From a virus, in the UHGV virus genome UHGV-1777858: a DNA stretch of 18,230 bases, one strand, 5' to 3'. Made by a program: the position numbers and the translations under genes. The notes beneath the pieces were generated by a model, which was given only the letters and a program-made list of their open reading frames with translations, made no database searches and was not told the DNA's origin. Shown here in pieces: positions 268-18,230 of the stretch (position 1 is the stretch's first letter; each line of letters starts with the position of its first letter).

Positions 268-1725
268 ATGAATACATCTCATGTAAGAGTTGTTACTCAT
301 ATGTGTGGGTTCCTGGTTTGGCTCTATAGTCTTTCAATGTTGCCACCAATGGTTGTAGCATTGTTTTATAAAGAAAAAAGCCTGTTCGTTTTCTTTATAA
401 CTTTCGTTATATTTTTTTGCATTGGTGGCGGAGCGTGGTATACAACTAAGAAATCTGGCATTCAATTACGTACCCGTGATGGGTTTATTATAATTGTAAT
501 GTTTTGGATTTTGTTTTCTGTTATTAGTGCATTCCCTTTATGGATTGACTCAGAACTTAATTTAACGTTCATTGATGCTCTGTTTGAAGGGGTTTCTGGA
601 ATAACAACAACAGGAGCAACTGTAATTGATGATGTTAGTTCATTACCTCGGGCATATTTGTACTATCGGTCACAGTTAAATTTTATAGGTGGTTTAGGAG
701 TTATTGTTCTGGCGGTTGCTGTATTGCCATTATTGGGTATTGGTGGTGCAAAGCTTTATCAGTCAGAAATGCCGGGGCCATTTAAGGATGACAAACTCAC
801 TCCCCGCCTGGCCGATACGTCACGGACACTGTGGATAACTTATTCTTTATTAGGTATTGCTTGTATTGTCTGTTATAGACTTGCAGGAATGCCTTTGTTT
901 GATGCTATTTGTCACGGGATTTCCACAGTTTCGCTTGGTGGTTTCTCAACTCATAGCGAGAGTATCGGATATTTTAATAACTATTTGGTTGAGCTGGTGG
1001 CTGGTTCTTTTTCCCTGCTATCGGCTTTCAACTTCACTCTTTGGTATATTGTTATTAGCAGGAAAACGATAAAACCTTTAATCAGAGATATTGAACTTCG
1101 TTTCTTTCTGTTAATAGCCTTAGGGGTGATCATTGTTACCTCTTTCCAGGTCTGGCATATAGGTATGTATGACTTGCATGGAAGTTTTATTCATTCGTTT
1201 TTTCTTGCCAGCTCCATGCTCACTGATAATGGTTTAGCTACGCAGGATTATGCAAGTTGGCCCACGCACACGATAGTGTTTTTGCTGTTGTCAAGTTTCT
1301 TTGGGGGATGTATAGGTTCAACTTGTGGTGGAATTAAGTCACTTCGATTTCTTATACTTTTCAAACAAAGCAAACACGAGATAAATCAGCTTTCTCATCC
1401 CAGAGCGTTGTTGAGTGTAAATGTAGGAGGGAAGATAGTTACAGATCGTGTAATGAGGTCTGTATGGAGTTTCTTTTTTCTTTATACTCTCTTCACGGTG
1501 TTTTTTATACTGGTGTTAAATGGTATGGGATATGATTTTCTTACATCATTTGCAACAGTGGCTGCATGTATTAATAATATGGGATTAGGTTTTGGGGCTA
1601 CTGCATCGTCATTCGGAGTGCTTAATGACATTGCAAAATGTTTAATGTGCATAGCTATGATTCTTGGTCGCCTTGAAATTTATCCTGTTATTATATTGTT
1701 TTCAGGTTTTTTTTGGCGCTCCTAA
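268..1725 (+). CDS. trkG: TrkH/TrkG-family potassium uptake transporter (Rac prophage TrkG)
   Basis: The 485-aa product from ATG 268 (MNTSHVRVVTHMCGFLVWLYSL...) is a polytopic membrane protein with repeated glycine-rich selectivity-filter-like segments (GVSGITTTGATV, LGGFSTHSE, GSTCGGIKS, NNMGLGFGAT). I recognise the N-terminus as E. coli TrkG. The ORF track starts at TTG 250, which has a better-spaced SD (AAGGTGG 237-243). Confidence 0.9.
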   Translation: MNTSHVRVVTHMCGFLVWLYSLSMLPPMVVALFYKEKSLFVFFITFVIFFCIGGGAWYTTKKSGIQLRTRDGFIIIVMFWILFSVISAFPLWIDSELNLTFIDALFEGVSGITTTGATVIDDVSSLPRAYLYYRSQLNFIGGLGVIVLAVAVLPLLGIGGAKLYQSEMPGPFKDDKLTPRLADTSRTLWITYSLLGIACIVCYRLAGMPLFDAICHGISTVSLGGFSTHSESIGYFNNYLVELVAGSFSLLSAFNFTLWYIVISRKTIKPLIRDIELRFFLLIALGVIIVTSFQVWHIGMYDLHGSFIHSFFLASSMLTDNGLATQDYASWPTHTIVFLLLSSFFGGCIGSTCGGIKSLRFLILFKQSKHEINQLSHPRALLSVNVGGKIVTDRVMRSVWSFFFLYTLFTVFFILVLNGMGYDFLTSFATVAACINNMGLGFGATASSFGVLNDIAKCLMCIAMILGRLEIYPVIILFSGFFWRS

Positions 1726-1811
1726 TATATGGCTGATTTATAATTGTGAGTTTAATATTATGTTGACTCACTCATTGATCCAATACCTAACTTTACCAGC
1801 AACCCCTCCGT

Positions 1812-1846
1812 CCCCAGTAGCACTGGCTGCTGGGGTGCGTTTTATT
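1812..1846 (+). terminator. Rho-independent terminator downstream of trkG
   Basis: A 10-bp stem (CCCCAGTAGC / GCTGCTGGGG, one G-U pair) with a 4-nt loop at 1812-1835, followed by TGCGTTTTATT. Confidence 0.5.
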
Positions 1847-1862
1847 CATAAAGCAAGGCTGT

Positions 1863-2654
1863 ATGAGCGAGAAATTAAAGATAGTCTATCGCCCATTACA
1901 AGAATTGTCACCGTATGCGCACAACGCCAGGACGCACAGCCCTGAGCAGGTGGCACAACTGGTAGAAAGTATTAAGCAATTCGGCTGGACTAATCCGGTG
2001 CTGATTGACGAAAAGGGCGAAATTATTGCGGGTCACGGTCGTGTTATGGCGGCTGAAATGCTCAAAATGGATTCTGTTCCGGTCATTGTTCTGTCTGGCC
2101 TGACGGATGAGCAGAAAAAGGCGTACCGCCTGGCAGATAATCGCCTGCCGATGAATGCTGGCTGGGATGAAGATCTGTTGCGGATGGAGCTGTCGGACCT
2201 AATCAATGCTGATTTTGATGTCTCCCTGACAGGCTTCATCCCGACAGAAATTGATGAACTGTTGACGGATGTTTTGCCCGGTACAGGAAATGAGGAGGAG
2301 CCGTATACGACGAAAATTGATACGCCTGTTTATGAGCCGTCGGGCGGTAAACCGGATATCAGTGAACTGTACGACGATACGAAAACTCAGGAGCTGATCA
2401 GCCGGATACGTTCGGCGTCCCTTGAGCCTGATATTGAGAAATTCCTCCTGTGTGCGGCAGAACGTCACACGGTGTTTAATTTCAGCAGAATTGCGGACTA
2501 TTACGCTCACGCCCCCTCTGAAATTCAGTGTTTTTTCGAGGAGTCGGCGCTGGTGATCATTGATTATCAGCAGGCTATTGAAAATGGATTTGTCCGGATG
2601 ACGCAGCGCATGGTGGAGATCATGCATGGTGGTGAGGAGGAGGAATATGCGTGA
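1863..2654 (+). CDS. ParB-like nuclease domain (ParB N-terminal domain) protein with a C-terminal domain of unknown function
   Basis: 263 aa. The N-terminal ~100 aa (YRPLQELSPYAHNARTHSPEQVAQLVESIKQFGWTNPVLIDEKGEIIAGHGRVMAA...YRLADNRL) has the ParB/sulfiredoxin-type arrangement with a glycine/arginine box (AGHGRVMAA). The C-terminal ~160 aa are acidic and I do not recognise them. SD AAGG lies 4 nt upstream of the ATG. Confidence 0.75.
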   Translation: MSEKLKIVYRPLQELSPYAHNARTHSPEQVAQLVESIKQFGWTNPVLIDEKGEIIAGHGRVMAAEMLKMDSVPVIVLSGLTDEQKKAYRLADNRLPMNAGWDEDLLRMELSDLINADFDVSLTGFIPTEIDELLTDVLPGTGNEEEPYTTKIDTPVYEPSGGKPDISELYDDTKTQELISRIRSASLEPDIEKFLLCAAERHTVFNFSRIADYYAHAPSEIQCFFEESALVIIDYQQAIENGFVRMTQRMVEIMHGGEEEEYA

Positions 2655-3546
2655 TGATTTTTGCGCCTTTATTCTGACTCACGGGCGACCGGACAAAGTT
2701 CTGACTTACCGGACGTTGCGTCGTGCTGGCTATACCGGGAAAATTTTTATCGTTGTTGATGAATTTGGTGAACAGGTGCTGGTGTTTTCCAAAGCCGATA
2801 TCGCCAGTCGTTTTGACGAAGCCGATAATTTCTGTGACCGCCGCTCAATTTTTTACGCCCGTAATGCCTGTTTCGACCTGGCAAAACTGGTCGGGTGTAA
2901 ATACTTCATTCAGCTCGATGATGATTATCACGAGTTCCAGTTTCGGGTGGATCGCAACTATGACCAGGCCTATTTTCCGATAAGGAAACTGGATGCGATC
3001 CTTTCTGAAATGCTGGCGTACTACGAATCAATACCTGCTCTTTCCATCGCTATGTCGCAGGGCGGGGATTTTCTTGGTGACAATGGCGGCCATGCTTCGT
3101 GGGTGAAACGCAAGGCAATGAACAGCTTTATCTGTTCGGTTGATCGACCGTTCTCATTCATGGGGCGCATTAACGAGGATGTGAATACGTACACGAATCT
3201 CGGTCGCTGTGGTGAATTGTTTATGACGATCGGTGCTGTCCAGTTAGGGCAGAAACAGACGCAGAAAAACAGCGGCGGAATGACCGAGCTGTATCTGGAT
3301 TCCGGAACCTACGTTAAAAGTTTTTACTCCGTCATGTATGCGCCGTCGTGCGTAAAAATCTCACTGATGGGTGCCAGCCATAAACGCATTCACCATCAGG
3401 TCACCTGGAACAACGCTGCAGTAAAAATCCTTCACGAAAAATACAGGAAGAAGACACCCTGCATATCAATGGGGGTGACAAATGATTCCGTATTCGAAAG
3501 TCGAGTCTCTGGCAGCGTGCCGGATGACTGCACAACAAATCGCTGA
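2647..3546 (+). CDS. GT-A fold protein, family-2-glycosyltransferase-like (putative glycosyl- or nucleotidyl-transferase; function unknown)
   Basis: Start ATG 2647 follows a strong SD (GAGGAGGAGGA) and overlaps the ParB-like stop as ATGCGTGA, suggesting translational coupling. The N-terminus matches the GT2 pattern: beta1 AFILTHGRPD, then GKIFIVVDEFG (compare EIIVVDDGS), then ARNACFDLAKLVGCKYFIQLDDDY (compare aRNxGxxxAxGxYixFLDxDD, DxD near residue 91-93). No transmembrane segment is evident. Confidence 0.55.
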   Translation: MRDDFCAFILTHGRPDKVLTYRTLRRAGYTGKIFIVVDEFGEQVLVFSKADIASRFDEADNFCDRRSIFYARNACFDLAKLVGCKYFIQLDDDYHEFQFRVDRNYDQAYFPIRKLDAILSEMLAYYESIPALSIAMSQGGDFLGDNGGHASWVKRKAMNSFICSVDRPFSFMGRINEDVNTYTNLGRCGELFMTIGAVQLGQKQTQKNSGGMTELYLDSGTYVKSFYSVMYAPSCVKISLMGASHKRIHHQVTWNNAAVKILHEKYRKKTPCISMGVTNDSVFESRVSGSVPDDCTTNR

Positions 3547-3733
3547 CGTTCTGGATGTTGATCTGAACCGACTGAAAGAAAATCGGGAAGCAATGACAGA
3601 TTTTTATGCGGCCATCCGTAAGGGCAGAGCGAAAGGTGAAGCCGAGTTACGAGCGGCATTGTTTAAGCTTGCCAGAAAAGGGGATGCCTTTGCTCTGCGC
3701 GAACTACTCAGGGTGGATAAAAATCAGGACTAA
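3482..3733 (+). CDS. Small hypothetical protein, HTH-like (possible packaging accessory or DNA-binding protein)
   Basis: 83-aa ORF with SD GGGGGTGA upstream of ATG 3482. It overlaps the 3' end of the preceding gene by 65 nt. It contains an HTH-like segment (MTAQQIADVLDVDLNRL); an alternative start is ATG 3524. Confidence 0.4.
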   Translation: MIPYSKVESLAACRMTAQQIADVLDVDLNRLKENREAMTDFYAAIRKGRAKGEAELRAALFKLARKGDAFALRELLRVDKNQD

Positions 3734-3736
3734 CTG

Positions 3737-4831
3737 ATGAGCAGACCGGACTGGGGGGCGTTGCAGCAGGAGTATATTGCTGAATACACCCGCTCCGGTA
3801 TATCTCCGGTGGCATGGTGTGAAGCAAGGGGACTGAATTACGCAACAGCCCGTCGTTACATCAAAAAAACTCCGAAAAATGCGCAGACAGAAATGTGCAA
3901 AACTGCGCAAAAAAGTGCGCAGAAAAAATCTGCGCAGACTGCACAAAAGCGGAACGAAAAATCTCAGGAAAAAAAGCCAGTATTCGATGCGGGCCTGAAT
4001 GAGGGCGACGCGGAGGAATTTTCGTTCTGTCCCGATGAATTCGGCATTTCTGACCAGCAGGCTAAGTTTGCGATGCTTGTTGCTCAGGGTAAAAAGCCGA
4101 CAGAGGCGTACCGACTAGCCGGTTATGAGGGGCAAGGTGCGACAGCTAACAGCAACGCCAGTCGTATGCTTAGAAATGCCAGGGTTTTTCGCGCTATCAG
4201 CTACTTCCGCAATCAGTACCAGAAACGCTATACCGCAGACCTGGATTTACTAGTGAGTCAGTTGATGGCTATTGTCCTGGCCGACCCCAATCAGCTTGCA
4301 CAATTTCGCCGTGTTAACTGCCGTTATTGCTGGGGCGAGAATCATCTCTACCAGTGGCGCGATATAGCAGAATTCGACAAGGCAGCGGCGCAGGCTTCCA
4401 GAGATGGCAAACCCGAACCGGAATATGGAGGCCTCGGCTTTGTTGATAACGCCATACCCAATCCGGACTGCCCGAAGTGCTGCGGTGAGGGAACGGGACA
4501 GCTTTATATGGCTGATACCACTCTGCTTGATGGGGATGCGCGGCAATTATATGCAGGGGCAAAATTCGGAAAATTCGGCGTTGAGATCCTGCTGGAGGAT
4601 AAGGCTGCCGCCCGGCGTGAATTGTTGCGTTTGCTTTCTGCTGGCGGGGATTTATGTGCAGATAAGCGGCTACAGGAACTGGAAATTGAACGGCGCAGAA
4701 TGGAAAACCAGAAGCTGCGCAAAGAGATCGAAACGGTGGAAGATAATGAACATCCCCAGCCTGTGGCGATCAATATTAATGTGGTTGATGCCAGAGTAAG
4801 GAGTGATGAAGATGATCTCTCCGACGCTTAA
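3737..4831 (+). CDS. Terminase small subunit (Terminase_2 / P27-like family) with N-terminal HTH domain
   Basis: 364 aa. N-terminal HTH-like segment (GISPVAWCEARGLNYATARRYIKK), a low-complexity K/Q/A linker, then a terminase-small-subunit signature (QQAKFAMLVAQGKKPTEAYRLAGYEGQGATANSNASRMLRNARVFRAISYF). Sits immediately upstream of terL and overlaps it. Confidence 0.85.
   Translation: MSRPDWGALQQEYIAEYTRSGISPVAWCEARGLNYATARRYIKKTPKNAQTEMCKTAQKSAQKKSAQTAQKRNEKSQEKKPVFDAGLNEGDAEEFSFCPDEFGISDQQAKFAMLVAQGKKPTEAYRLAGYEGQGATANSNASRMLRNARVFRAISYFRNQYQKRYTADLDLLVSQLMAIVLADPNQLAQFRRVNCRYCWGENHLYQWRDIAEFDKAAAQASRDGKPEPEYGGLGFVDNAIPNPDCPKCCGEGTGQLYMADTTLLDGDARQLYAGAKFGKFGVEILLEDKAAARRELLRLLSAGGDLCADKRLQELEIERRRMENQKLRKEIETVEDNEHPQPVAININVVDARVRSDEDDLSDA
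3872..3946. repeat. Cluster of palindromic TGCGCA hexamers (four perfect, two 1-mismatch) inside terS; candidate pac / TerS recognition repeats
   Basis: Perfect TGCGCA at 3880, 3904, 3916 and 3931; TGTGCA at 3894 and TGCACA at 3940. Spacing is 9-15 bp, and most copies are preceded by an A-run and followed by A/G-A (AAAAnTGCGCAGA). Confidence 0.45.
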
Positions 4832-6113
4832 TGTGCCTCAGGCGCGATTTCTTTCAATGCCCCATAAATTTAAAGCCTATATTGCTGGTTTTGGCTCGGG
4901 CAAAACATGGGTTGGGTGTGGCGGCATATGCAAGGGGATTTGGGAGCATCCAGGTATAAATCAGGGATATTTTGCGCCAACGTATCCCCAAATTCGCGAT
5001 ATTTTTTACCCTACAGTGGAAGAAGTTGCTGCTGACTGGGGATTGAACGTAAAAATTAATGAGGGAAATAAAGAGGTTCACTTTTATTACGGACGCCAGT
5101 ATCGGGGAACCACTATCTGCAGATCGATGGAGAAGCCACAAACGATCGTCGGTTTCAAAATTGGTAATGCGTTGGTGGATGAACTGGACATTTTGCCGAA
5201 GGAAAAAGCCAGAACGGCGTGGCGCAAGATAATTGCGCGTATGCGTTATAAGATTGATGGACTTCGCAACGGTATTGACGTTACAACCACGCCGGAAGGA
5301 TTCAAATTTGTCTACGAGCAGTTTGTTAAAGCCGTGCGTGAAAAAACAGAGCTGGCCTCACTGTATGGTCTGGTGCAGGCATCTACTTTCGATAATGAAA
5401 AGAACCTGCCAGCAGATTACATTCCTTCGCTTCTTGAATCATACCCTCCAGAGCTGATTAAAGCCTATCTGCGAGGACAGTTTACTAACCTGACAAGTGG
5501 TACTGTTTACCATCAGTTTGACCGGAAACTGAATAATTGCGAAGAAGTGGAGCAGCCAGGGGAGCCGATTTATATTGGGATGGATTTTAACGTTGGAAAG
5601 ATGGCGGGAATCGTCCATGTGCTGCGTTTGGGGCTTCCATGTGCGGTAACTGAAATCATCAATGCCTACGATACGCCGGATATGATCCGCATCATTAAAG
5701 AACGCTTCTGGCTGTATGATGGGAATGATTACCGGAAAGTGAGGGAAATTTATATTTATCCAGATGCTTCCGGGGATTCCAGAAAATCAAGTAACGCAAG
5801 TACGACGGATATAGCCCAGCTTAAGCAGGCTGGTTTTAACGTTGTGGTGAACAGCTCGAACCCGCCAGTAAAAGATCGCGTTAACTCAATGAATGCAATG
5901 TTCTGCAATGCCAATGGTGAGCGTCGCTATAAAGTTAATGTGAAGCGTTGCCCGTTATATGCCGAATCTCTGGAGCAACAGGTCTGGGATGAGAAGGGGG
6001 AGCCTGATAAAAAATCTGGCAATGATCACCCGAATGATGCCGGAGGTTATTTCATCGTTAAGCAATTCCCTATTGTCAAACCGACCGGAAGAGTCACATC
6101 ACTTCGGATTTAA
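4812..6113 (+). CDS. Terminase large subunit (ATPase/nuclease)
   Basis: Walker A-like motif near the N-terminus (AGFGSGKTWVG), size ~430 aa, position directly after terS. The ORF is open from GTG 4803; ATG 4812 has the best spacing from SD AAGGAG (4798-4803). Confidence 0.9.
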   Translation: MISPTLNVPQARFLSMPHKFKAYIAGFGSGKTWVGCGGICKGIWEHPGINQGYFAPTYPQIRDIFYPTVEEVAADWGLNVKINEGNKEVHFYYGRQYRGTTICRSMEKPQTIVGFKIGNALVDELDILPKEKARTAWRKIIARMRYKIDGLRNGIDVTTTPEGFKFVYEQFVKAVREKTELASLYGLVQASTFDNEKNLPADYIPSLLESYPPELIKAYLRGQFTNLTSGTVYHQFDRKLNNCEEVEQPGEPIYIGMDFNVGKMAGIVHVLRLGLPCAVTEIINAYDTPDMIRIIKERFWLYDGNDYRKVREIYIYPDASGDSRKSSNASTTDIAQLKQAGFNVVVNSSNPPVKDRVNSMNAMFCNANGERRYKVNVKRCPLYAESLEQQVWDEKGEPDKKSGNDHPNDAGGYFIVKQFPIVKPTGRVTSLRI

Positions 6114-6115
6114 TT

Positions 6116-7522
6116 ATGGCTGATATATCAACACCCAACCTCGACTATAACGATATGCTGGAGGCGTGGGATATTAACGACGCACTGATGGGCGGTACGC
6201 TTGAAATGCGCAGGCAGGGGGAAAATTATCTCCCAAAATGGCCTAACGAAGATGAAGACGCTTATAAAAAACGCCTGTCTGCGGCTACGCTACTTCCTGT
6301 GTATGAAGAAAGCATCAAGCAAAATATTGGGCGCATATTTGCAGAGCCGACAGTATTGAGTGAGGAAACGCCGGCAAAAATCAGGGAATATGCAGAAAAT
6401 ATCGACATGGAGGGAAGCCGACTGGATGTGTGGGCGCAGCAATTTTTCAGCCTCGCATTTCAGTATGGTGTGGCACATGCGCTGGTGGACTATCCACGAA
6501 CGGATATGAAAGAGATTCGGACAAAAGCCGATGAAAACGCGGCCGGTAGTCGTCCGTACGTTACGATGCTGAATCCACGCCAGGTTATTGGATGGAAATC
6601 GAAAGTTGAAAAAGGGAAAGTTGTTCTCACTGATTTGCGTATAAAAGAGGTCATCATTATTGATGGTGATGATTTCGGGCAGAAGAAGGTGGAGCAGATC
6701 CGCCATATTATGCCCCGTCGAGTTGAAATTTATCGACGTAGCGAAGGCACTAATGGCGAATCTGTCTGGACGCTTCATGAGTCATGGAATACCAGCCGTG
6801 ATGATATTCCTCTGGTAACACTGTACACGAAGAAAACAGGATTTATGCGTGGTACACCGCCATTGCTTAATCTTGGCTTGCTGAATATCAAGCACTGGCA
6901 AAGCCAGAGCGAGCAGGACAATATTCTTCATGTTGCCCGCGTTCCATTGCTGGTGGCCTACGGGCTGGACAGGAATGAAGAACTGACGGTTGGTGCATCC
7001 ACCGCTACGATTTTTGAGGACAGAACAAAAAATGGCCTCGAATATGTTGAACATAGTGGCGCAGCGATAGAATCTGGCGAAACATCACTTGAGAAGCTGG
7101 AAAATCAGATGCGTCATGCCGGCGCTAAACTTCTGCGTGCTGAAAATACATCCACCAAATCTGTTGATCAGACTAATGAAGAGCGAATGCAGGAAAACTC
7201 GCCGCTTTATACAATGGCGAACTCCCTCGAAGATGCCCTCGATAATATTCTCCAGATAATGGCGGAATGGATCGGAGAGAGTTGCGGTGGCAATGTGGAT
7301 GTGCGCACTGAACTGGATGTATCTGCCCAGGTGTTTGACTCATCCTCCGCGCTGGCTGTTCAGTCATTGCGTCAGGGCGGTGATATACGTCAGATTGATG
7401 CGATTCGGGTGTTGCAGGCGTTGAAATTTATCGATCAGGATTCCCGTCCAGAGGAAGTGATCGATGAATTAAAAAATCAGAGTGTAATGCTGATGGAAAT
7501 CAATGATGCAAACCGTGAATGA
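6116..7522 (+). CDS. Phage portal protein (probable)
   Basis: 468-aa ORF immediately following terL (stop TAA 6111-6113, ATG 6116), with an acidic C-terminus. Position and size fit a portal; family assignment is from memory of similar prophage proteins and is not verified. Confidence 0.7.
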   Translation: MADISTPNLDYNDMLEAWDINDALMGGTLEMRRQGENYLPKWPNEDEDAYKKRLSAATLLPVYEESIKQNIGRIFAEPTVLSEETPAKIREYAENIDMEGSRLDVWAQQFFSLAFQYGVAHALVDYPRTDMKEIRTKADENAAGSRPYVTMLNPRQVIGWKSKVEKGKVVLTDLRIKEVIIIDGDDFGQKKVEQIRHIMPRRVEIYRRSEGTNGESVWTLHESWNTSRDDIPLVTLYTKKTGFMRGTPPLLNLGLLNIKHWQSQSEQDNILHVARVPLLVAYGLDRNEELTVGASTATIFEDRTKNGLEYVEHSGAAIESGETSLEKLENQMRHAGAKLLRAENTSTKSVDQTNEERMQENSPLYTMANSLEDALDNILQIMAEWIGESCGGNVDVRTELDVSAQVFDSSSALAVQSLRQGGDIRQIDAIRVLQALKFIDQDSRPEEVIDELKNQSVMLMEINDANRE

Positions 7523-8618
7523 ACGGCTGCGTGATGAATCAATTGCTCATGCAGTCTGGATATCCCGCTATAGCACTGGCGTGGCTGCCAGAATGGTGAA
7601 AATACTGAATGACAGCGATGCGGAACTTACTGCTCGCCTGCTGATAGCACTGGACAGCCTCGATCCAGGTAGTTTTACCGTTAAGCGCCTGGAGTCACTT
7701 CTGGCGAGCGTCAGAGAGGTTAACCGCACTGCTATTAACAGCATGTTTACCAGTCTCTCCGGAGAGCTGAACGAGCTGGCAATTTATGAGGCTGGTTATC
7801 AGTTAAGTCTGTTTGATTCTATGCTACCTGATTTTGTTGCTGATGTTCACCCTCTGGTTGGTATCTCTCCTGATGCACTTTATGCCGCTGCAATGGCGCG
7901 ACCATTTCAGGGACGACTGCTCAGTGAGTGGGCCTCAGATCTTGAGGCGGATCGGCTCAGACGCATAACAAATACAGTGCGTCAGGGTTTTTTGCTGGGG
8001 GATACCAATGAGCAGATCGCAAGAAAAATTCGGGGACATGTCAGTAAGGGATTTCAGGATGGTGCATTGCAGATGAGCCGGGCTAATGCGGCCAGCATTG
8101 CAAAAACAGCGGTTGGACATCTTGCTGCTACTGCCCGTGAGAGTTTTGCCAGCGCGAATAATGATTTGATTAAGGGTAAGCAATGGTTATCAACGCTTGA
8201 TAATCGTACTACGCCACAATGTCGAATCAGGGATCGCCTCAAATATACGCTGAATAATAAACCTGTAGGTCACAGCGTGCCTTATTTGCAGGGGCCGGGA
8301 AAAATTCATTTCTGCTGCCGCTCAACGGAAACGTTCATTCTGAAATCAGCGAAGGAACTGGGTATTGATGTTCGCGATATTTCCCCGGCTGAGCGGGCCA
8401 GCATGGATGGCGTGGTGGCCGGAGATACAACCTACAGGGAATGGTTTTTGCGTCAGCCTTACACCAGACAAAAACAGATTGTGGGGGAAACCCGAGCAAA
8501 GCTGATTCGGGATGGTGGTATGTCGCCAGATGAATTTTACACCGATAAAGGCGAATGGCTGACGCTGAAGCAGCTCCGTGAGCGTGATGCACAGGTATTC
8601 AGAAAAGCAGGGATTTAA
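7503..8618 (+). CDS. Head morphogenesis protein (Mu F / SPP1 gp7-like minor head protein)
   Basis: 371 aa, overlaps the portal 3' end and lies between portal and scaffold. Sequence character (e.g. ...GISPDALYAAAMARPFQGRLLSEWASDLE...) is consistent with the Phage_Mu_F family, not verified. Confidence 0.75.
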   Translation: MMQTVNERLRDESIAHAVWISRYSTGVAARMVKILNDSDAELTARLLIALDSLDPGSFTVKRLESLLASVREVNRTAINSMFTSLSGELNELAIYEAGYQLSLFDSMLPDFVADVHPLVGISPDALYAAAMARPFQGRLLSEWASDLEADRLRRITNTVRQGFLLGDTNEQIARKIRGHVSKGFQDGALQMSRANAASIAKTAVGHLAATARESFASANNDLIKGKQWLSTLDNRTTPQCRIRDRLKYTLNNKPVGHSVPYLQGPGKIHFCCRSTETFILKSAKELGIDVRDISPAERASMDGVVAGDTTYREWFLRQPYTRQKQIVGETRAKLIRDGGMSPDEFYTDKGEWLTLKQLRERDAQVFRKAGI

Positions 8619-8637
8619 ATAAATCATTTATTACAAC

Positions 8638-8665
8638 AGGCTACCTTCGGGTGGCCTTTTTTATT
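8638..8665 (+). terminator. Rho-independent terminator (UUCG tetraloop) after the head morphogenesis gene
   Basis: AGGCTACC-TTCG-GGTGGCCT (8-bp stem with one G-U pair) followed by TTTTTTATT. Confidence 0.6.
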
Positions 8666-8722
8666 GCTGCGATCCGGATGGTGAGCAGCGTAACTGTCGG
8701 AAGACTTAAACCAGGTACTAAT

Positions 8723-8860
8723 ATGAAACTGAAAACGGTCGAGATTAACGGAAAACAATACGCAGAAATTGATACTGCTGGCCTGCCAGTTTATGTGCAC
8801 GACGATGGTAAAGAAATTGGCTTCGATGCACCGCTGGCGACAAAAAAAATTACAGAATAG
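8723..8860 (+). CDS. Scaffold-like protein, N-terminal fragment (frame ends just after an A8 tract)
   Basis: MKLKTVEINGKQYAEIDTAGLPVYVHDDGKEIGFDAPLATKKITE then stop. The reading frame continues in the +1 frame across the A8 run at 8842-8849 into the next ORF. Confidence 0.55.
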   Translation: MKLKTVEINGKQYAEIDTAGLPVYVHDDGKEIGFDAPLATKKITE

Positions 8861-9482
8861 CGAGGCAAAAAATCATCGCCTGGCTAAAGAAGCTGCAGAG
8901 GAAAAACTGGCTAAGTTTGCCGCTATCGAAGACCCGAAGAAGGCGATCGAGGCACTGGAAATGCTGTCAAAAATCGACCAGAAAAAGCTGCTCGATGCGG
9001 GACAGGTTGACCAGGTTAAGGCAGAAATTACGAAAAATTTTCAGCAGCAATTAGATGAAGAAAAGCAACGCTCTCAGATGCTGGAGAAGCAGCTTTACGA
9101 TTCTATGATTGGCGGTAGTTTTGCGGGTTCAAAATATATTGCCGATAAAATTGCGATCCCGGCAGATTTATTACAATCACGCTTCGGGCAGGCATTCAAA
9201 GTGGAAGAAGGGAGGATCGTTGCTTATGACGCTTCCGGCAACAAAATTTATTCCCGCGCGAAGCCTGGCGAACTGGCGCAGTTTGATGAGGCGCTGGAGT
9301 TCCTTGTCGAAAATTACCCTCAGAAAGACTACATCCTGAAAGCCAGTGGCAACAATGGCGGCGGCTCCCGTCCGACACAGCATGATATTGGTCAGAAAAC
9401 GATGAAACGCTCTGCTTTTGATGCACTGGATGTTGCAGGTAAGCAAAACGCATTGAAAGACGGTATCACAATCGTTGATTAA
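8826..9482 (+). CDS. Scaffold-like protein, main portion (coiled-coil-rich); likely the same gene as 8723-8860, disrupted by a frameshift
   Basis: Frame open from 8769. The product is rich in charged, helix-forming residues (AKEAAEEKLAKFAAIEDPKKAIEALEML...QQQLDEEKQRSQMLEKQLYD) and lies between the head morphogenesis and major capsid genes, the usual scaffold position. No convincing RBS for an independent start. Confidence 0.6.
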   Translation: MHRWRQKKLQNSEAKNHRLAKEAAEEKLAKFAAIEDPKKAIEALEMLSKIDQKKLLDAGQVDQVKAEITKNFQQQLDEEKQRSQMLEKQLYDSMIGGSFAGSKYIADKIAIPADLLQSRFGQAFKVEEGRIVAYDASGNKIYSRAKPGELAQFDEALEFLVENYPQKDYILKASGNNGGGSRPTQHDIGQKTMKRSAFDALDVAGKQNALKDGITIVD

Positions 9483-9580
9483 CACATTTGTCAGCTTCCG
9501 GATGGGAGCTGGTGTCAGGGCTGGATAGCTCATTACTCCATCTATTCACAATTACGCAAATTTTTAAGGAATATTTAATT

Positions 9581-10720
9581 ATGGCTGGAAATACCCTGAC
9601 CGGGTTGATCCCGACTATTTATACCGCCCTGGATGTTGTATCCCGTGAGCAGGTAGGTTTTATCCCTGCGGTAGCAAAAAACGCAAAAGCTGACGCCGCA
9701 GCAAAAGATCAGACGGTAACCGCGCCAGTTGCGCCTGAGGCGAAAACCGAAGATATCGTACCGGGGCCGTCAGCTCCGAATACCGGTGATCAAAATATTG
9801 GCACTGTTGATGTAAAAATTACTAAATCCAAAATGGCACCTGTTAAATGGAATGGTGAAGAACAACTGGCTCTTGGTCCTTCAGGGACTTACAACACCAT
9901 TCTGGCTGATCAGTTCAAGCAGGCTTTTCGCGCCCTTGCAAACGAGGTTGAGGCTGATCTTGGTGCGTTGTATTTCGGTGCTTCCCGCGCCGTGGGAACC
10001 GCAGGGACAACGCCGTTTGGTGTTAAAGATGATCTTTCTGATGCTGCTCTGGCTCGTCAGGTTCTGGAGGATAACGGCGCACCGACAACCGATCTGCAGA
10101 TGGTGCTTGGCTCCACTGCCATTGCTAATTTGCGCGGAAAACAGTCTGTATTGTTTAAAGTGAATGAATCCGGCACTGAACAGCTACTGCGTGAGGGCGT
10201 GTTGGGGCGTCTGGAGGGATTCAATATTCACAGTTCGGCAGGTGTGAAACGAGCGCCAAAGGTTGCTGCAACTGGTTATCTCGTGAATGGAGAGAAAAAA
10301 GAAGGCGATGTTCTTATTTCCATTGATACTGGTTCGGGGAGTATTTCTGCAGGTCAGATTGTTACGTTCGCTGGTGATCCGAATCAGTATGTTGTGGCAG
10401 CAGCGACCAGCAATCTGATTACTCTTGCAGCGCCCGGACTGCGTCAGGATCTGGCCGATGATACTGCCATCACAGTTGTTGGGGCCTTTACTGCAAATAT
10501 GGCGTTTGATCGCAACGCGTTTCTGCTGGCATCCCGTACTCCGGCAATGCCGGAAGGTGGCGATAATGCTGATGATGTAATGAATGTTACGGACCCGATT
10601 TCAGGGATTACGTTCCAGATTGCACTGTATCGTCAGTATCGCCAGGTGCGCTATGAAGTTGGACTGGCATGGGGTGTTTCATCAGTGAAGCCGGCACATG
10701 GTTGTCTGATTCTTGGTTAA
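9581..10720 (+). CDS. Major capsid protein (probable)
   Basis: 379 aa from ATG 9581 (SD AAGGA at 9566-9570; the ORF track starts at TTG 9488). Lies after the scaffold gene and is followed by a strong terminator, consistent with a highly expressed coat gene. Family not verified. Confidence 0.7.
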   Translation: MAGNTLTGLIPTIYTALDVVSREQVGFIPAVAKNAKADAAAKDQTVTAPVAPEAKTEDIVPGPSAPNTGDQNIGTVDVKITKSKMAPVKWNGEEQLALGPSGTYNTILADQFKQAFRALANEVEADLGALYFGASRAVGTAGTTPFGVKDDLSDAALARQVLEDNGAPTTDLQMVLGSTAIANLRGKQSVLFKVNESGTEQLLREGVLGRLEGFNIHSSAGVKRAPKVAATGYLVNGEKKEGDVLISIDTGSGSISAGQIVTFAGDPNQYVVAAATSNLITLAAPGLRQDLADDTAITVVGAFTANMAFDRNAFLLASRTPAMPEGGDNADDVMNVTDPISGITFQIALYRQYRQVRYEVGLAWGVSSVKPAHGCLILG

Positions 10721-10726
10721 ACATTC

Positions 10727-10750
10727 AAACGGGGCTTCGGCCCCATTTTT
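10727..10750 (+). terminator. Rho-independent terminator (UUCG tetraloop) after the major capsid gene
   Basis: GGGGC-TTCG-GCCCC at 10731-10744 (stem possibly extended by AAAC/ATTT) followed by ATTTTTAA. Confidence 0.65.
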
Positions 10751-10762
10751 AATGGGGGGCAT

Positions 10763-10939
10763 ATGGCCGGATTAACTAAAGAGCAAAGAGCACAGCGTGA
10801 AGCCGCACAAAAAACGCAAATTGAGTTAGTGGTTATGGTGACCGATTATCAGATGTTTCCCGGCGCACCAACTATCGCTAATGTTCATCCTGATGAAGTT
10901 GACAACTGGAAGGCTATGGGCTGGAAAACTCAGGAGTAA
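10763..10939 (+). CDS. Small hypothetical protein (58 aa), not in the supplied ORF track
   Basis: ATG 10763 is preceded by a G-rich SD-like run (GGGGGG); stop TAA at 10937-10939. Fills the otherwise non-coding gap between the capsid terminator and the connector gene. Product: MAGLTKEQRAQREAAQKTQIELVVMVTDYQMFPGAPTIANVHPDEVDNWKAMGWKTQE. Confidence 0.35.
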   Translation: MAGLTKEQRAQREAAQKTQIELVVMVTDYQMFPGAPTIANVHPDEVDNWKAMGWKTQE

Positions 10940-10942
10940 CAC

Positions 10943-11338
10943 ATGATCACTTACGTGACCTGTGATGACGTTGATAATGCGTTTGGGAACGCCTGGACGA
11001 GTGAGAACGCTAAAAATAAAGCTGTTTTAATGGCTAATGCCTGGCTTAATGGCTTCAACCTGAAAATTAACCCATCCCGTATTCCGGAAGAGGTAAAACT
11101 TGCGGGAGCATATGCAGCCAGAATTGCCTCATTTGGTAAGTTGTTTCAGCAGAAAAATGATTCTGGCGTTGTTATCAGTAAAGCCGTGTCGGCTGACGGG
11201 GTCAGTGTATCGAAATCATTTTCTGAGTTGCCAGCAAACAGCACTGCATTGCTTGAACCCGATTTACAGCTTGCGATAGCACTGCTGAAACCGTACGGAC
11301 TTAGTCGCTCACAAGTCAGGGTTGTGAGGGGGGGATAA
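10943..11338 (+). CDS. Head-tail connector / adaptor protein (putative)
   Basis: 131 aa with strong SD AGGAG 6 nt upstream. Position after the capsid gene; stop overlaps the next start (TAATG). Confidence 0.6.
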   Translation: MITYVTCDDVDNAFGNAWTSENAKNKAVLMANAWLNGFNLKINPSRIPEEVKLAGAYAARIASFGKLFQQKNDSGVVISKAVSADGVSVSKSFSELPANSTALLEPDLQLAIALLKPYGLSRSQVRVVRGG

Positions 11339-11721
11339 TGGGGCTTCGTGAAGAGATTCAGTCAGAGGTTGCCGCTGCTTTTGATGAGGATTTAGCGGAC
11401 GCCGTGAGTGATTTTTCTGGTTATTACGTTACGCACCGGCACTGGGATCCTGTGACGGAAACTGGCGGCGAATCCACCGCAATCTATACCGGGCGAGGCG
11501 TGTTGACACGTTATAAGCTGGGCAGAATTGATGGGATTAATATTTTGCATGGTGACCTTAAATTAACCGCTCTGGTATGCGAGGTTACGGATAAACCAGC
11601 TGTCGACCATATTATTGAGATTTATGATCCTGTATCAAGGCAGTTACAACGATACGAGGTAATTACAGCAAGTTTAGATCCTTCCGCATCAGTTTACTCT
11701 ATCCAGTTAAGGAGAGCGTAA
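11338..11721 (+). CDS. Head closure / head-tail joining protein (putative)
   Basis: 127 aa, SD GAGGGGGGG, coupled to the upstream gene via TAATG overlap. Assigned by synteny. Confidence 0.55.
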   Translation: MGLREEIQSEVAAAFDEDLADAVSDFSGYYVTHRHWDPVTETGGESTAIYTGRGVLTRYKLGRIDGINILHGDLKLTALVCEVTDKPAVDHIIEIYDPVSRQLQRYEVITASLDPSASVYSIQLRRA

Positions 11722-12102
11722 ATGGCAAAGGCATGGGATATAGAACCGTCAATATTTGCCGGGATGATTGAGGAAGATGTAGGGCTGAAGATTCGCTACA
11801 TCGCTATGCAGATTCTTACTGCTATTGATATTGCTGCTCCGGTTGATACCGGACGTTTCAGAAATAACAACCTGGTGTCGTTACAGCATCCCGATTTTGG
11901 TATATCTGATAACGTGGATCCGAACGGTACGATTGCTGTTCAGCGTGGGATCGGGGTTATTTCGAAAGCTGCAAATTACGGGGTTATTTATATCCAGAAT
12001 AACCTTCCTTATGCAGAGGCTCTTGAAAACGGTCATTCACAACAAGCGCCAACTGGCGTGTATGCCAACGCTTTTTATGGTGTTTTACAGGCTTACAAAT
12101 GA
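11722..12102 (+). CDS. HK97 gp10-family neck / tail-completion protein (putative)
   Basis: 126 aa with SD AAGGAGA. Contains PVDTGRFRNN, resembling the vDTGrLrns signature I associate with the HK97 gp10 family. Confidence 0.6.
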   Translation: MAKAWDIEPSIFAGMIEEDVGLKIRYIAMQILTAIDIAAPVDTGRFRNNNLVSLQHPDFGISDNVDPNGTIAVQRGIGVISKAANYGVIYIQNNLPYAEALENGHSQQAPTGVYANAFYGVLQAYK

Positions 12103-12491
12103 AGTTTACTGAAATCAGAAATACGGTTATTTCCAGAATGACGGCACAGACGATTATTGATGGAAAAGACGTATTGTATCCGAACGGGCCAACGTTCGAT
12201 CCTTCCGGTAAGTTAATCTGGGCGCGGTTAAGTAATATTCCCGGGCAGGCTGGGGTTAATGAAATTGGCGCGGGGCCGGTTGTTTATCGCACGGGGATAA
12301 TCATTATTCAGTTATTTGTCCCCGCAGGTTCTGGTTCAAAACTCATTACTGAGACAGCCGATAAATTGCGGGAACTGTTTGAGTTTCAGGATGACGATCG
12401 TCTCAGTTACCAGGCTGTTTCCTCAATAGCCGTCGGCGAAAAGAATGGCTGGTTCCAGCTTAATCTTCAAATTCCATATCGCGCGCTCTAG
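12099..12491 (+). CDS. Tail terminator / tail completion protein (gpU-like position)
   Basis: 130 aa with ATGA start/stop overlap with the upstream gene. Lies immediately before the major tail protein gene, as lambda U does. Assigned by synteny. Confidence 0.55.
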   Translation: MKFTEIRNTVISRMTAQTIIDGKDVLYPNGPTFDPSGKLIWARLSNIPGQAGVNEIGAGPVVYRTGIIIIQLFVPAGSGSKLITETADKLRELFEFQDDDRLSYQAVSSIAVGEKNGWFQLNLQIPYRAL

Positions 12492-12517
12492 CGCAATTAA
12501 TGACATAGGAGGCTTCT

Positions 12518-13480
12518 GTGAGTTCAGGTGCAAAGGTTATCTCGGCATTTATCCGGGAGACAGTTGCAGGCACTACGCCAGCAAGTGGTGACTGGAGTTT
12601 ATTAAAACGCACAAGCTGGGGAGTAAAACCCACCCAGAATAAAGGCGAAAATAATGAGATTGGTGGCTCCCGGATGGCTCAGGGGGCGACGCCTGGCACT
12701 GTGGATGTCGGCGGTGATGTTGGTACCAAATTTCGCTGGGGTCAACATGATGATTTTCTTGCATCCTGTTTCGGCGCGGAATGGTCAGGCGATTCTCTGA
12801 CAATGGGGAATGAGCGAATAACATTTTCTCTGGCGACCTATGCGTCCGATGTCGGAATTGCCTCTGTCGTCAGAGGAGCGCAGGTTGGCTCATGGAAAAT
12901 GCAGATCCCTAACGACGGCGATATTACAGCGACCGTAACCTTTGCCGGGCTGGGCTGGGAAACAAAGGCCGATGATACGAATTTTATCAAAGGCAAACCT
13001 GTGGATAGTGCAGGAAAGTTACGCTATTCGTTTAAGGAGGTTTCAGCAGTAAGCCTGAATGGTGTTGCCGGAGGTAACGGTTTTTGTATCGACAGTTTTG
13101 ATATTCAGTTCGATAACAAACTCCAGACACAGCGTTGTATCGGGACTGGCTCGCCTTATGCAGGAGCAAATATTCCGACTACTTTTACACCGTCCGGTAC
13201 GGTGACGCTTTCATGGTCTAAAGCCGCGTGGGAAATCTGGAGTAAAACACTGACTGGAGAAACAGTTCCGTTCAGCTTCACGCTTTCGAATGGAGAGGGG
13301 GCATACACTTTCAGTTTCCCGAAGGTTCAGGTGTCAGGTGAATGGCCTGATGGGGGTAATACTGACATTATCCAGGTTCAATTGAGCATTACCGCAGCAG
13401 ATGAAGCACCTACGATAACCAGAAAAAAATGCTCCCCGACTGCCGTGATCGCAAAAGCCAGTGCTGATGCGATTAGTTGA
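12518..13480 (+). CDS. Major tail (tube) protein, possibly with a C-terminal Ig-like extension
   Basis: 320 aa from GTG 12518 with a perfect SD (AGGAGG). Gly/Thr/Ser-rich composition typical of tail tube proteins; precedes the G/GT chaperone and tape measure genes. Confidence 0.7.
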   Translation: MSSGAKVISAFIRETVAGTTPASGDWSLLKRTSWGVKPTQNKGENNEIGGSRMAQGATPGTVDVGGDVGTKFRWGQHDDFLASCFGAEWSGDSLTMGNERITFSLATYASDVGIASVVRGAQVGSWKMQIPNDGDITATVTFAGLGWETKADDTNFIKGKPVDSAGKLRYSFKEVSAVSLNGVAGGNGFCIDSFDIQFDNKLQTQRCIGTGSPYAGANIPTTFTPSGTVTLSWSKAAWEIWSKTLTGETVPFSFTLSNGEGAYTFSFPKVQVSGEWPDGGNTDIIQVQLSITAADEAPTITRKKCSPTAVIAKASADAIS

Positions 13481-13490
13481 TTTTCCGTTA

Positions 13491-13517
13491 TTCCCCCTGT
13501 GGTACTGCACTACAGGG
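13491..13517 (+). other. Stem-loop without U-tract between major tail and chaperone genes
   Basis: CCCCCTGT (13491-13498) and ACAGGGGG (13510-13517) form an 8-bp GC-rich stem with an 11-nt loop. The 3' arm overlaps the SD-like AGGGGG of the downstream gene. Confidence 0.35.
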
Positions 13518-13528
13518 GGACGCATTGA

Positions 13529-13990
13529 ATGAGGTTATGGATGTTTATTCTTAATCAGAAAATTATCATCGGTGGAGAACGCTGGTTTACGCCAATGAAG
13601 GACTTAAAACCTGTAGACGGGTTAAAACTGTTGGTGGCAAGCAGCGATAACGATCAGTATCGCTCCCGTAATGCATTAATCCGTCGTCACATTGAGAAAA
13701 TGGATGCCAGTTTGCACGTCGGAACGAAGGAGTTTGATATTTCAAAGGTTTCCGAGGTAGATTCTGTTGATGATTTACTCATTGATAATGCTGCTCGTTA
13801 TCTGCTGAAAGACTGGAAAGGGGTTGGTGAACTGGTTAATGGTGCTGAGGTTGCACTGGAATATACGCCAGAACGAGGGATCGCGCTGCTTAAGCAGAAT
13901 CCAGAGTTGTACTGGCAGATCCTTGCAGAAGCAGCCAGCATCGCCCAGGGTAAAGAGCAGCAGAAGCAGGATACGATAAAAAAGCCATAG
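13529..13990 (+). CDS. Tail assembly chaperone (lambda gpG-like)
   Basis: 153-aa ORF (alternative start ATG 13595, MKDLKPVDG...) directly upstream of the tape measure gene. Its last codons contain the slippery heptamer A_AAA_AAG, and the -1 frame is open for a further ~105 codons. Confidence 0.7.
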   Translation: MRLWMFILNQKIIIGGERWFTPMKDLKPVDGLKLLVASSDNDQYRSRNALIRRHIEKMDASLHVGTKEFDISKVSEVDSVDDLLIDNAARYLLKDWKGVGELVNGAEVALEYTPERGIALLKQNPELYWQILAEAASIAQGKEQQKQDTIKKP

Positions 13991-14298
13991 CCGCCCAGCG
14001 GTGGTTATCGGAGTTCGGGGGAGAAAGGGGGGAAAAGGCAAGATGGAAGCGAGAAAAACTCAGGTTGCCACCGATACCGGAACCAGAAATAGACCCGGTG
14101 CTTAAGGAATTGTTGTACGCCTATTCGGTAATATCCCGTGCCCGACGTTATGCTGGAATGACCGGGGTGCCTTTGCCTTTATCTCTGACAGAGATAAATG
14201 AATATTTAGCCACTCATCCGGTATTGATTGAGCGCGATGAGTTTGAAGCAGTGATCTTTGCACTGGATGACCAGTATTTTCAGGATCAGTGTGTGTAG
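13529..14298 (+). CDS. Tail assembly chaperone G-T fusion product (via -1 frameshift at 13978-13984)
   Basis: The -1 frame is open from the slippery site to 14298. The G/GT frameshift directly upstream of the tape measure gene is conserved among long-tailed phages. Confidence 0.55.
13978..13984 (+). promoter_or_regulatory. Programmed -1 ribosomal frameshift site (slippery heptamer A_AAA_AAG) for a G-T fusion
   Basis: G-frame codons are ATA AAA AAG CCA TAG. After a -1 slip the frame reads GCC ATA GCC GCC CAG ... and stays open to TAG at 14296-14298 (the ORF track shows this frame as 14065-14298). Confidence 0.6.
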
Positions 14299-14421
14299 TT
14301 GTTAATTACGTACACTCTGTTACAGAGATGTGATGGTGTCTTTAATTAAATCGATGATGCTCCTGGAGAAAAGCATTGCGTGGCCTCGTAATCGCTATAT
14401 CTACTATTATGTCGCCTGAAA

Positions 14422-14445
14422 CCCACTTCGGTGGGCTTTTTGTTG
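14422..14445 (+). terminator. Terminator-like UUCG-tetraloop hairpin in the G/T to tape-measure intergenic region
   Basis: CCCAC-TTCG-GTGGG followed by CTTTTTGTTG. The stem is short (5 bp), so it may act as a partial terminator or attenuator. Confidence 0.4.
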
Positions 14446-14461
14446 TCTGGAGTTTTAATAA

Positions 14462-18026: not shown

Positions 18027-18230
18027 TGCAGGACATACAACAGGAAACGCTGAATGAATGCATTCGTGCGGAGCAGTCGGCCAGCTTGGTGCTCTGGGAA
18101 ATCGACCTGACCGAGGTAGGCGGGGATCGCTACTTTTTCTGCAATGAGCAGAACGAGAAAGGAGAGTCTGTCACCTGGCAGAGTCGGCAGTATCAGGCCT
18201 ATCCCATTCAGGGGAGAGGATTTGAGATGA
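18026..18230 (+). CDS. Minor tail protein L (lambda gpL-like), N-terminal part; gene continues beyond the window
   Basis: Starts at ATG 18026, overlapping the M stop (TGATG). The product MQDIQQETLNECIRAEQSASLVLWEIDLTEVGGDRYFFCNEQNEKGESVTWQSRQYQAYPIQGRGFE is nearly identical to the lambda L N-terminus as I recall it. Confidence 0.9.
   Translation, partial: MQDIQQETLNECIRAEQSASLVLWEIDLTEVGGDRYFFCNEQNEKGESVTWQSRQYQAYPIQGRGFEM

Follow-up and report, generated by a model that had tools for sequence, protein, structure and literature searches.

A ParB-like protein paired with a TAGT-family glycosyltransferase upstream of the terminase genes: a candidate DNA-modification module of phages and prophages

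The UHGV virus genome UHGV-1777858, analysed here as a stretch of 18,230 nucleotides (in the following: the window), is a Rac-like lambdoid prophage of Escherichia coli. Its counterpart is the prophage of E. coli SE11, to which it is 100% identical from position 1 to 2762 and 99.2% identical from 2760 to 18230. Upstream of its terminase genes, two overlapping open reading frames (ORFs) encode a ParB-like protein (ORF1) and a glycosyltransferase (ORF2), and this locus raises the question of what two such proteins do together at this place. A first-pass annotation had proposed DNA modification or an accessory role in packaging. The pairing of ORF2, a member of the TAGT family, with the C-terminal domain of ORF1, referred to here as ParBC, is near-obligate and ancient. 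With regard to function, we assign a probability of about 0.5 to the reading that the pair is a late-expressed two-protein DNA-modification module.

Composition and conservation of the pair

The pair comprises the following features, all of which are located on the + strand:

1863-2654, + strand: ParB-like gene (ORF1), 263 amino acids, RefSeq name ynaK
1863..2267, + strand: N domain with ParB/Srx fold and the following helices (amino acids 1-135 of ORF1), from Pfam, profile, model, Foldseek and PADLOC
2268..2357, + strand: predicted disordered acidic linker (amino acids 136-165 of ORF1), with a predicted local distance difference test score (pLDDT) <50 for residues 136-166
2304..2654, + strand: ParBC, mostly helical C-terminal domain of about 115 amino acids with an acidic tail, from phmmer and locus surveys
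2634..2654, + strand: coupling junction with Shine-Dalgarno sequence (2634-2644), ATG (2647) and TGA of ORF1 (2652-2654)
2647..3546, + strand: TAGT-family GT-A gene (ORF2), 299 amino acids here and 310 amino acids in the public allele
2760..2762, + strand: junction of a 33-bp in-frame deletion in ORF2, from comparison with public homologues

ORF2 is a member of the TAGT family according to hidden Markov model, fold and motifs. The Pfam model TAGT (PF20691) matched over profile positions 4-205 of 205 (E 3.1e-29, 102.8 bits, cut-off 27.5), and the ORF is thus assigned to a named family, which the first-pass annotation had not given for its GT-A-fold transferase. An AlphaFold2 model of the intact allele reached pLDDT values >90 in the N-terminal half. 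The top fold matches of this model in the PDB were all GT-A enzymes, and the nearest solved folds included ThuS/SunS, ColGalT1, glycogenin and POMGNT1; models of viral TAGT domains matched with E 1e-21 and TM values of 0.72-0.79. The residues R14, D91-D92-D93 (nucleotides 2917-2925) and E177-D178 are invariant among the aligned homologues and intact in the allele of the window, as is the motif NEDV (amino acids 176-179), in which Val follows ED, with Tyr three residues further on. Such R...DDD...ED motifs were described for phage GT-A DNA glycosyltransferases and for the base-J glucosyltransferase JGT (bioRxiv 10.1101/2023.12.21.572611). Thousands of homologues of the two proteins were found, so that the observation is not due to chance.

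The protein is basic (isoelectric point, pI, 8.0-8.3). Neither ORF1 nor ORF2 possesses a transmembrane segment, the highest mean of 19 residues on the Kyte-Doolittle scale being 1.25, and 1.08 in the comparison with GtrB-like glycosyltransferases. The earlier view of ORF2 as a soluble GT-A protein was therefore upheld, and a GtrB-like role at the membrane or in seroconversion was rejected. The TAGT family was reportedly defined by Iyer et al. in 2013 (NAR 41:7635). Some RefSeq copies of ORF2 are named 'GREB1-related protein'. A sequence search of solved structures with the glycosyltransferase profile yielded nothing meaningful (best match T4 gp54, E 0.7). The PHROG name 'beta-glucosyl-HMC-alpha-glucosyltransferase' was not accepted as evidence of function because T2 and T6 are absent from the tblastn matches; T4-like Aeromonas phages matched ORF2 at only 23-25% identity.

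ORF1 is a member of the ParB/Srx fold. It matched Pfam ParB_N (PF02195) just above the cut-off (E 1.2e-6, 28.9 bits, cut-off 26.3) and PHROG 620 with 8.5e-91. Furthermore, the profile of its homologues matched the N domains of Noc and ParB, which bind cytidine triphosphate (CTP), with IIAGHGR aligned to IIAGERR. In AGHGR, the counterpart of the canonical ParB motif GERR, His hence replaces Glu. Conserved residues of the N domain are N21, H25, R60 and D92-N93, and in the sequence alignment R60 and N93 correspond to phosphate-binding residues of CTP-binding ParB. In the AlphaFold2 model, residues 1-135 form a confident ParB/Srx fold with two helices, residues 136-166 a linker of low confidence, and the C-terminal part is helical, likewise at low confidence. 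A Foldseek search with the whole model retrieved Noc, ParB, KorB, PadC and sulfiredoxin, all of them matching the N domain only, and the PADLOC model MTase_II matched amino acids 10-144 with 2.2e-38. The linker contains the conserved motif PYTxKIDTPVYEPS in its 3' third, overlapping the start of ParBC, and residues Y148, K151, P155, Y157 and P159 are kept across phyla.

A canonical partition ParB was considered and rejected for ORF1: the glutamate of GERR is replaced, no helix-turn-helix or other DNA-binding domain was recognised (the model of the C-terminal part being of low confidence), no parA gene occurs nearby in the window or in the SE11 prophage, and neither a parS-like nor any other notable repeat was detected in 1700-3800. 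The protein is acidic, with a pI of 4.5.

ParBC is not represented by any Pfam or NCBIfam model, and the description of ORF1 as a ParB-like N domain followed by an unrecognised C-terminal part, supported here by Pfam and Foldseek, was correct. Comparison across phyla showed stronger conservation for ParBC than for the ParB N domain. The ParBC consensus reads roughly Y[TS]xK[IV]xxPxY..P, FL..AAxRH..F, IA.Y.H, Q.LME.SALVIID and AI..G, followed by the acidic tail; R-H, H, E, D and Y are invariant. A phmmer search of 1.84 billion representative proteins yielded 1,183 clusters at 50% identity, in which ParBC is located nearly always at the C-terminus of proteins of 250-300 amino acids. Among the loci examined, it was seen only beside TAGT genes. 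On a Lachnospiraceae contig (L015, 3306-6011), ParBC occurs as a lone ORF of 134 amino acids, lacking the ParB N domain, directly after a gene for a family-A DNA polymerase and before TAGT. This stand-alone form points to ParBC, and not the ParB fold, as the constant partner of this TAGT subfamily.

The co-occurrence of both genes in other genomes, on which the first-pass annotation had made its proposal depend, was found in every survey. Starting from TAGT, contigs of one genome per species were searched and 20 diverse loci were compared; a ParBC gene is located directly upstream of TAGT and on the same strand in 20/20. These loci span Enterobacterales, Bacteroidota, Chlorobi, Firmicutes, Saccharibacteria, Thiotrichales and Hyphomonadaceae. 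The same arrangement occurs in 80/80 IMG/VR loci found with TAGT, most of which are close relatives, and conversely TAGT follows downstream in all 32 of the 32 IMG/VR loci possessing both ParB N and ParBC. In relatives lacking ParBC, whose N domains are about 50-60% identical, this TAGT subfamily is absent (48/48 loci). Pairs with overlapping stop and start codons are present in L. gasseri phage phi jlb1 (annotated overlap 11 nucleotides), L. delbrueckii phage c5 (29 nucleotides) and the archaeal virus HHTV-2 (11 nucleotides). In a search with TAGT only, homologues were additionally detected in Nocardia phage NTR1 and Vibrio phages of 191 kb. Of 5,426 complete E. coli genomes, 1,610 contain matches to the region, which extend over 80% or more of its length in 867. 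In one Hyphomonadaceae locus (L020, 2614-6158), two tandem TAGT paralogues follow the ParB-like gene, the first of them within an ORF of 564 amino acids that has an uncharacterised C-terminal extension of about 270 amino acids.

The two genes are also tightly coupled. The stop codon of ORF1 and the start codon of ORF2 both lie within ATGCGTGA, the overlap amounts to 8 nucleotides, and the strong Shine-Dalgarno sequence GAGGAGGAGGA (2634-2644) precedes the start at 2647, which is also the start annotated in RefSeq for E. coli SE11. Coordinates, overlap and ribosome-binding site had been given in this way by the first-pass annotation. ORF1 ends in the acidic tail GGEEEEYA (2626-2654), and in E. 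coli the codons of this tail also provide the Shine-Dalgarno sequence for TAGT. Comparable acidic tails are found on the ParB-like proteins of the loci L006-L020, Bacteroidota included. Bacteroidota are not known to rely on Shine-Dalgarno sequences, and the tail is therefore probably functional at the protein level.

The ORF2 allele of the window differs from its public homologues by the loss of 33 bp at about position 2760. The deletion is in frame, lies between short TGA(A) microhomology repeats and removes eleven residues (DEDKTRNQYMA); every public homologue examined reads IFIVVD-DEDKTRNQYMA-EFG. The string IFIVVDEFG, which had been taken for part of a GT2 signature, is in fact the junction of this deletion. 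In the alignment, where identities fall as low as 60%, all 14 homologues retain the missing segment with its Tyr and its two near-invariant Asp residues; in the model it forms the loop after strand beta2 and half of helix alpha2. In GT-A folds, this region generally holds the nucleotide of the sugar donor. The public allele of 310 amino acids retains the acidic loop and helix alpha2, whereas the window allele of 299 amino acids does not have an intact nucleotide-binding half. The intact pair is on record as WP_001291094 with WP_001204037, and carriers of the 310-residue allele include E. coli SE11 and Rac-like vB_EcoS isolates (ON4705xx). The shorter protein is not on record in the protein collection, and neither IMG/VR nor any of the 5,426 complete E. 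coli genomes contains the junction. Owing to the loss of a conserved segment of the nucleotide-binding half and to the absence of the junction from public data, the TAGT copy of the window is, judged from its sequence, probably defective or inactive. A private mutation in a decaying prophage could account for the deletion, as could an artefact of assembly or sequencing.

Genomic slot and relatives of the N domain

The gene order of the window is trkG, ParB-like gene, TAGT gene, small ORF, terS, terL and portal gene, which confirms the slot between the lysis genes with trkG and terS as noticed before. The neighbouring features are:

250-1725: trkG (potassium transporter), a moron with lysis genes on one side and late packaging genes on the other
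1812..1845, + strand: terminator-like hairpin (1812-1835; 10-pair stem with 7 G-C pairs), followed by the T-rich tail TGCGTTTTAT
3482..3733, + strand: small basic ORF (83 amino acids, pI 9.3), context outside the pair
3737..6113, + strand: terS (3737-4831) and terL (4803-6113), packaging genes whose position downstream of the pair is conserved

In 14 of 15 diverse loci, terL is located downstream of the pair. These terL genes belong to three Pfam families (Terminase_6N in 8 loci, Terminase_3 in 5 and GpA in 1), which speaks for a common timing or position more than for a specific terminase partner. The genes upstream are variable and comprise lysis genes, Q antiterminators, nucleases and methylases; the annotated cos site of phage c5 directly precedes the pair. 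With respect to transcription, the moron transcript of trkG likely ends at the hairpin (1812-1845), and between the hairpin and position 1863 no strong promoter-like site was found. Both observations suggest that the pair is co-transcribed with the late genes, for which Q-antiterminated transcription would have to read through the hairpin.

The small ORF overlaps the last 65 nucleotides of the TAGT gene and ends 3 nucleotides before terS. It matches only the middle part of PHROG 309 (small terminase; positions 145-218 of 319, E 8e-23) and may be a split-off DNA-binding piece of the small terminase. In the RefSeq annotation of SE11 a shorter version is given, and the C-terminal TAGT extension of about 20 amino acids that creates the overlap is absent in enterobacterial homologues outside Escherichia.

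Which enzymes otherwise accompany the N domain could be seen from the 48 relatives lacking ParBC. In 24 of these the N domain is fused to an N6_N4 DNA methylase. The downstream genes were scanned in the 36 loci with enough flanking sequence: a Mom-family gene directly follows the stand-alone ParB N gene in five, and two more-canonical TAGT genes, two GNAT acetyltransferases and one GTP cyclohydrolase I were also detected, with terL downstream in about 24. In this one slot upstream of the terminase, the same ParB N module thus occurs as a fused or adjacent partner of methylases, of Mom and of TAGT, which supports a DNA target by association only. Enzymes such as Mom of phage Mu can act on canonical bases.

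Two loci deserve a closer description. In the first (L058, 4779-6097), a lone ParB N gene, about 60% identical to the N domain of the window, overlaps the following Mom-family gene (Pfam PF25680, 2.6e-46), which is situated upstream of the terminase; four other IMG/VR loci are arranged likewise. These arrangements suggest a ParB partner for Mom-like enzymes as well. The second (L056, 2818-9115) contains lysis genes, MptE-like, GT9-like and Methyltransf_23 genes, ParB N, a canonical TAGT, terS and terL. Its ParB N protein has 222 amino acids and no ParBC, its TAGT matched with 3e-47, and no TET was found; the locus may represent a multi-step glycan pathway in the same slot.

Target of the glycosyltransferase

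The reading as a DNA-modification module would comprise the following steps. ORF1 would contribute its N-terminal ParB/Srx nucleotide-binding fold, which phages also use as partner or fusion domain of other DNA-modifying enzymes, and ParBC, specific to this glycosyltransferase, would most likely dock or activate TAGT. With a nucleotide-sugar and a divalent metal bound at the DxD motif, TAGT would add a sugar to the replicated phage DNA shortly before packaging, and the modified DNA would be protected against nucleases of the next host. Complex formation, the DNA target, late expression and the anti-restriction role are what we infer from the data on proteins and gene order. The charges of the two proteins (pI 4.5 for ORF1 and 8.0-8.3 for ORF2) fit a protein-protein pair of which the enzyme contacts DNA. 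Experimental precedent comes from ParB-like proteins of phages in which a linker joins the nucleotide-binding domain to a C-terminal domain and a DNA-binding domain is lacking; on double-stranded DNA they activate the thymine dioxygenases that are their cognate partners (PMC13229309). The domains that co-occur most often with phage 5mYOX genes are glycosyltransferases, ParBs and terminases (PMC13229309).

Several observations weigh against this reading, the most important of which concerns the acceptor. TAGT relatives tested so far glycosylate hydroxymethyl-pyrimidines in DNA, i.e. 5-hydroxymethylcytosine (5hmC) and 5-hydroxymethyluracil (5hmU). O-glycosylation requires a hydroxyl group, and the canonical bases have none. 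No TET/JBP or thymidylate-synthase-like family occurs among all 25 Pfam families detected in 30 upstream ORFs of at least about 190 amino acids from 14 diverse loci, nor were TET/JBP (5mYOX), hydroxymethylase or ThyS-like genes present in the other lists of neighbouring families. None is annotated in the complete genomes of the phages c5 (31.8 kb; largest unannotated ORF 208 amino acids) and phi jlb1 (38 kb) or in the Rac-like prophage of SE11, and the neighbourhood lists contain no 5mYOX beside ORF1-type genes. There is thus no evident source of 5hmC or 5hmU, the known acceptors of the family. Additionally, the C-terminal part of the ORF1 model, and with it ParBC, reached only pLDDT values of 30-80. 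The DNA modification put forward by the first-pass annotation is hence plausible by association, while a gene for a 5hmC/5hmU acceptor was not found and the proposal stays at the level of an inference.

A bolder variant dispenses with a hydroxymethyl-pyrimidine made by the phage. The pair would then put a sugar on a canonical base or another position of the DNA, or ParBC would itself supply the chemistry that forms or activates the acceptor. We regard this variant as tentative and rather doubtful. If it were true, it would represent a new type of DNA modification, encoded by a considerable share of E. coli genomes as well as by bacterial and archaeal viruses.

A protein target would likewise account for the absent source of hydroxymethylated bases. 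In this case, the target O-glycosylated by TAGT would be a protein of packaging or of the virion, or else its own ParB-like partner at the motif PYTxKIDTPVYEPS, and the ParB-like protein would be substrate or scaffold and not a DNA adaptor. The animal protein GREB1, which has a homologous TAGT-like glycosyltransferase domain, O-GlcNAcylates ERalpha and thereby demonstrates that a TAGT-like domain of a eukaryote can glycosylate a protein (PMC7968844); GREB1, however, is a cytoplasmic protein of 1,949 amino acids with neither a ParB partner nor a phage context. The Thr/Tyr/Ser-rich motif of the predicted disordered linker of ORF1 is invariant and could be an acceptor or a docking peptide, and the nearest folds of ORF2 include the peptide and protein glycosyltransferases ThuS/SunS, ColGalT1, glycogenin and POMGNT1, although these fold matches establish the GT-A fold only. 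The closest relatives of the N domain, on the other hand, are paired with enzymes that modify DNA (methylase, Mom) and not proteins, and the structural and packaging proteins encoded downstream vary so widely among the carriers that no conserved candidate beside the partner is left. Glycosylation of a protein is therefore unlikely in our opinion, and DNA remains the preferred target.

The conserved position directly upstream of terS and terL, in c5 right after the annotated cos site, could also be explained by an accessory function in packaging that involves no base modification. The ParB-like protein would mark or organise the DNA near pac or cos, and the glycosyltransferase-like protein would have a structural or regulatory role. 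Against this stand the terminases downstream, which derive from three unrelated Pfam families, and the catalytic motifs of the glycosyltransferase, whose invariance across phyla argues for enzymatic activity. Moreover, the ParB-like protein is acidic with no recognised DNA-binding domain, and 1700-3800 contains no parS-like repeat. We consider such a function very unlikely.

Defence or interference would require that the enzyme of the prophage glycosylates the hydroxymethyl-pyrimidines of superinfecting phages, for example T-even phages, or acts on foreign DNA. It would explain why the genome of the carrier has no hydroxymethylase, since 5hmC or 5hmU would be supplied by some of the invading phages, and it agrees with the frequent occurrence of the pair in E. 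coli prophages. For glycosyltransferases encoded by prophages, this possibility has been raised before (10.1101/2023.12.21.572611). The upstream hairpin, the lack of a strong promoter-like site of its own and the place at the head of the packaging genes, however, predict expression late in the lytic cycle and not in the lysogen. Phage c5, for which neither an integrase nor a cI-type repressor is annotated (Cro-like only), carries the pair as well, and the 191-kb Vibrio phages with TAGT homologues were counted against defence as well. PADLOC gave no match for the glycosyltransferase, and the pair is therefore not a catalogued defence system. Taken together, a defensive role appears highly improbable.

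Modification of a cell-envelope glycan of the TarP or Gtr type, leading to seroconversion or phage exclusion, is hardly conceivable even though phage GT-A DNA glycosyltransferases structurally resemble the prophage wall-teichoic-acid enzyme TarP (10.1101/2023.12.21.572611), because neither protein has a transmembrane segment, the pair spans Gram-negatives, Gram-positives and archaea with unrelated envelopes, and the enzyme is always paired with a ParB-fold protein among late packaging genes.

Relation to known systems and significance

With the phage GT-A DNA glycosyltransferases of the TAGT family (PF20691), including JGT, ORF2 shares the match to the hidden Markov model, the GT-A fold, the R...DDD...ED motifs and the origin from phages. 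Like many of the reported clusters of 5mYOX and glycosyltransferase genes, it is located near terminase genes (PMC13229309). In contrast to the usual context of TAGT, no TET/JBP (5mYOX), C5-methyltransferase or thymidylate-synthase-like partner was found near the pair. The ORF2 subfamily further differs from other TAGT proteins in being tied to a ParBC protein, and the allele of the window in lacking the acidic loop after beta2.

The system 5mYOX176/ParB176 resembles the pair in that a ParB-like protein has its gene beside that of a DNA-modifying enzyme (O'Toole et al. 2026, PMC13229309). The predicted layout of ORF1, with N domain, linker and a C-terminal domain modelled at low confidence, would correspond to the ParB176 type. 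Here, however, the partner is a glycosyltransferase and not a dioxygenase, and activation is known for the ParB176 side only. Fusions of ParB with N6/N4 methyltransferases in phages and prophages (PADLOC MTase_II; Kaljevic et al. 2025, PMC12704722) possess an N domain that is about 50-60% identical over about 135 amino acids and occupy the same slot upstream of the terminase. They differ by the fused methylase, in place of which ParBC and a separate glycosyltransferase gene occur here.

In the DpdA/DpdB (7-deazaguanine) and DndB (phosphorothioate) systems, too, a ParB-fold protein accompanies a DNA-modifying enzyme. The first-pass annotation had drawn its analogy from DpdA/DpdB, and the general part of this analogy, a ParB-like protein together with a DNA-modifying enzyme, was strengthened by the methylase and Mom relatives and by the published dioxygenase partners (PMC13229309). 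Its specific part did not hold: neither a DpdA resembling tRNA-guanine transglycosylase nor genes of the preQ0 pathway were found in the window or in E. coli SE11, Dnd genes are likewise missing, and the transfer of a sugar differs from the exchange of a base.

In the SE11 prophage, outside the window, a gene with a DUF262 domain was observed (L001, 8006-9688). DUF262 is the ParB-like NTPase domain of type IV restriction enzymes of the GmrSD type, which target DNA with glucosylated hydroxymethylcytosine. Together with TAGT, a possible writer and a possible reader of sugar-modified DNA would be present in one element.

PMC13229309 attributes to Iyer et al. 2013 the idea that ParB homologues direct DNA-modification enzymes, and for dioxygenases this idea now has an experimental basis (PMC13229309). 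In the searchable literature, no description was found of a ParBC-TAGT module lacking TET, of its C-terminal domain or of its conservation upstream of terminases, and nothing relevant on ynaK, on DNA modification in HHTV-2 or on a characterised pair of ParB and TAGT. In the current understanding, TAGT enzymes act after 5hmC or 5hmU has been formed, as the second step of their pathway. About 65% of the phage contigs with glycosyltransferases have no gene for this first step and were set aside as unexplained (10.1101/2023.12.21.572611).

The locus described here represents one large and coherent part of this unexplained set, namely a TAGT subfamily that occurs without TET and is locked to a ParBC protein. 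The acceptor question is directly testable, since carriers of the pair include prophages of E. coli that can be induced and small Lactobacillus phages in culture. If the acceptor is DNA, the pair would stand for a new modification chemistry; if it is a protein, adaptors with a ParB fold would not be restricted to enzymes acting on DNA.

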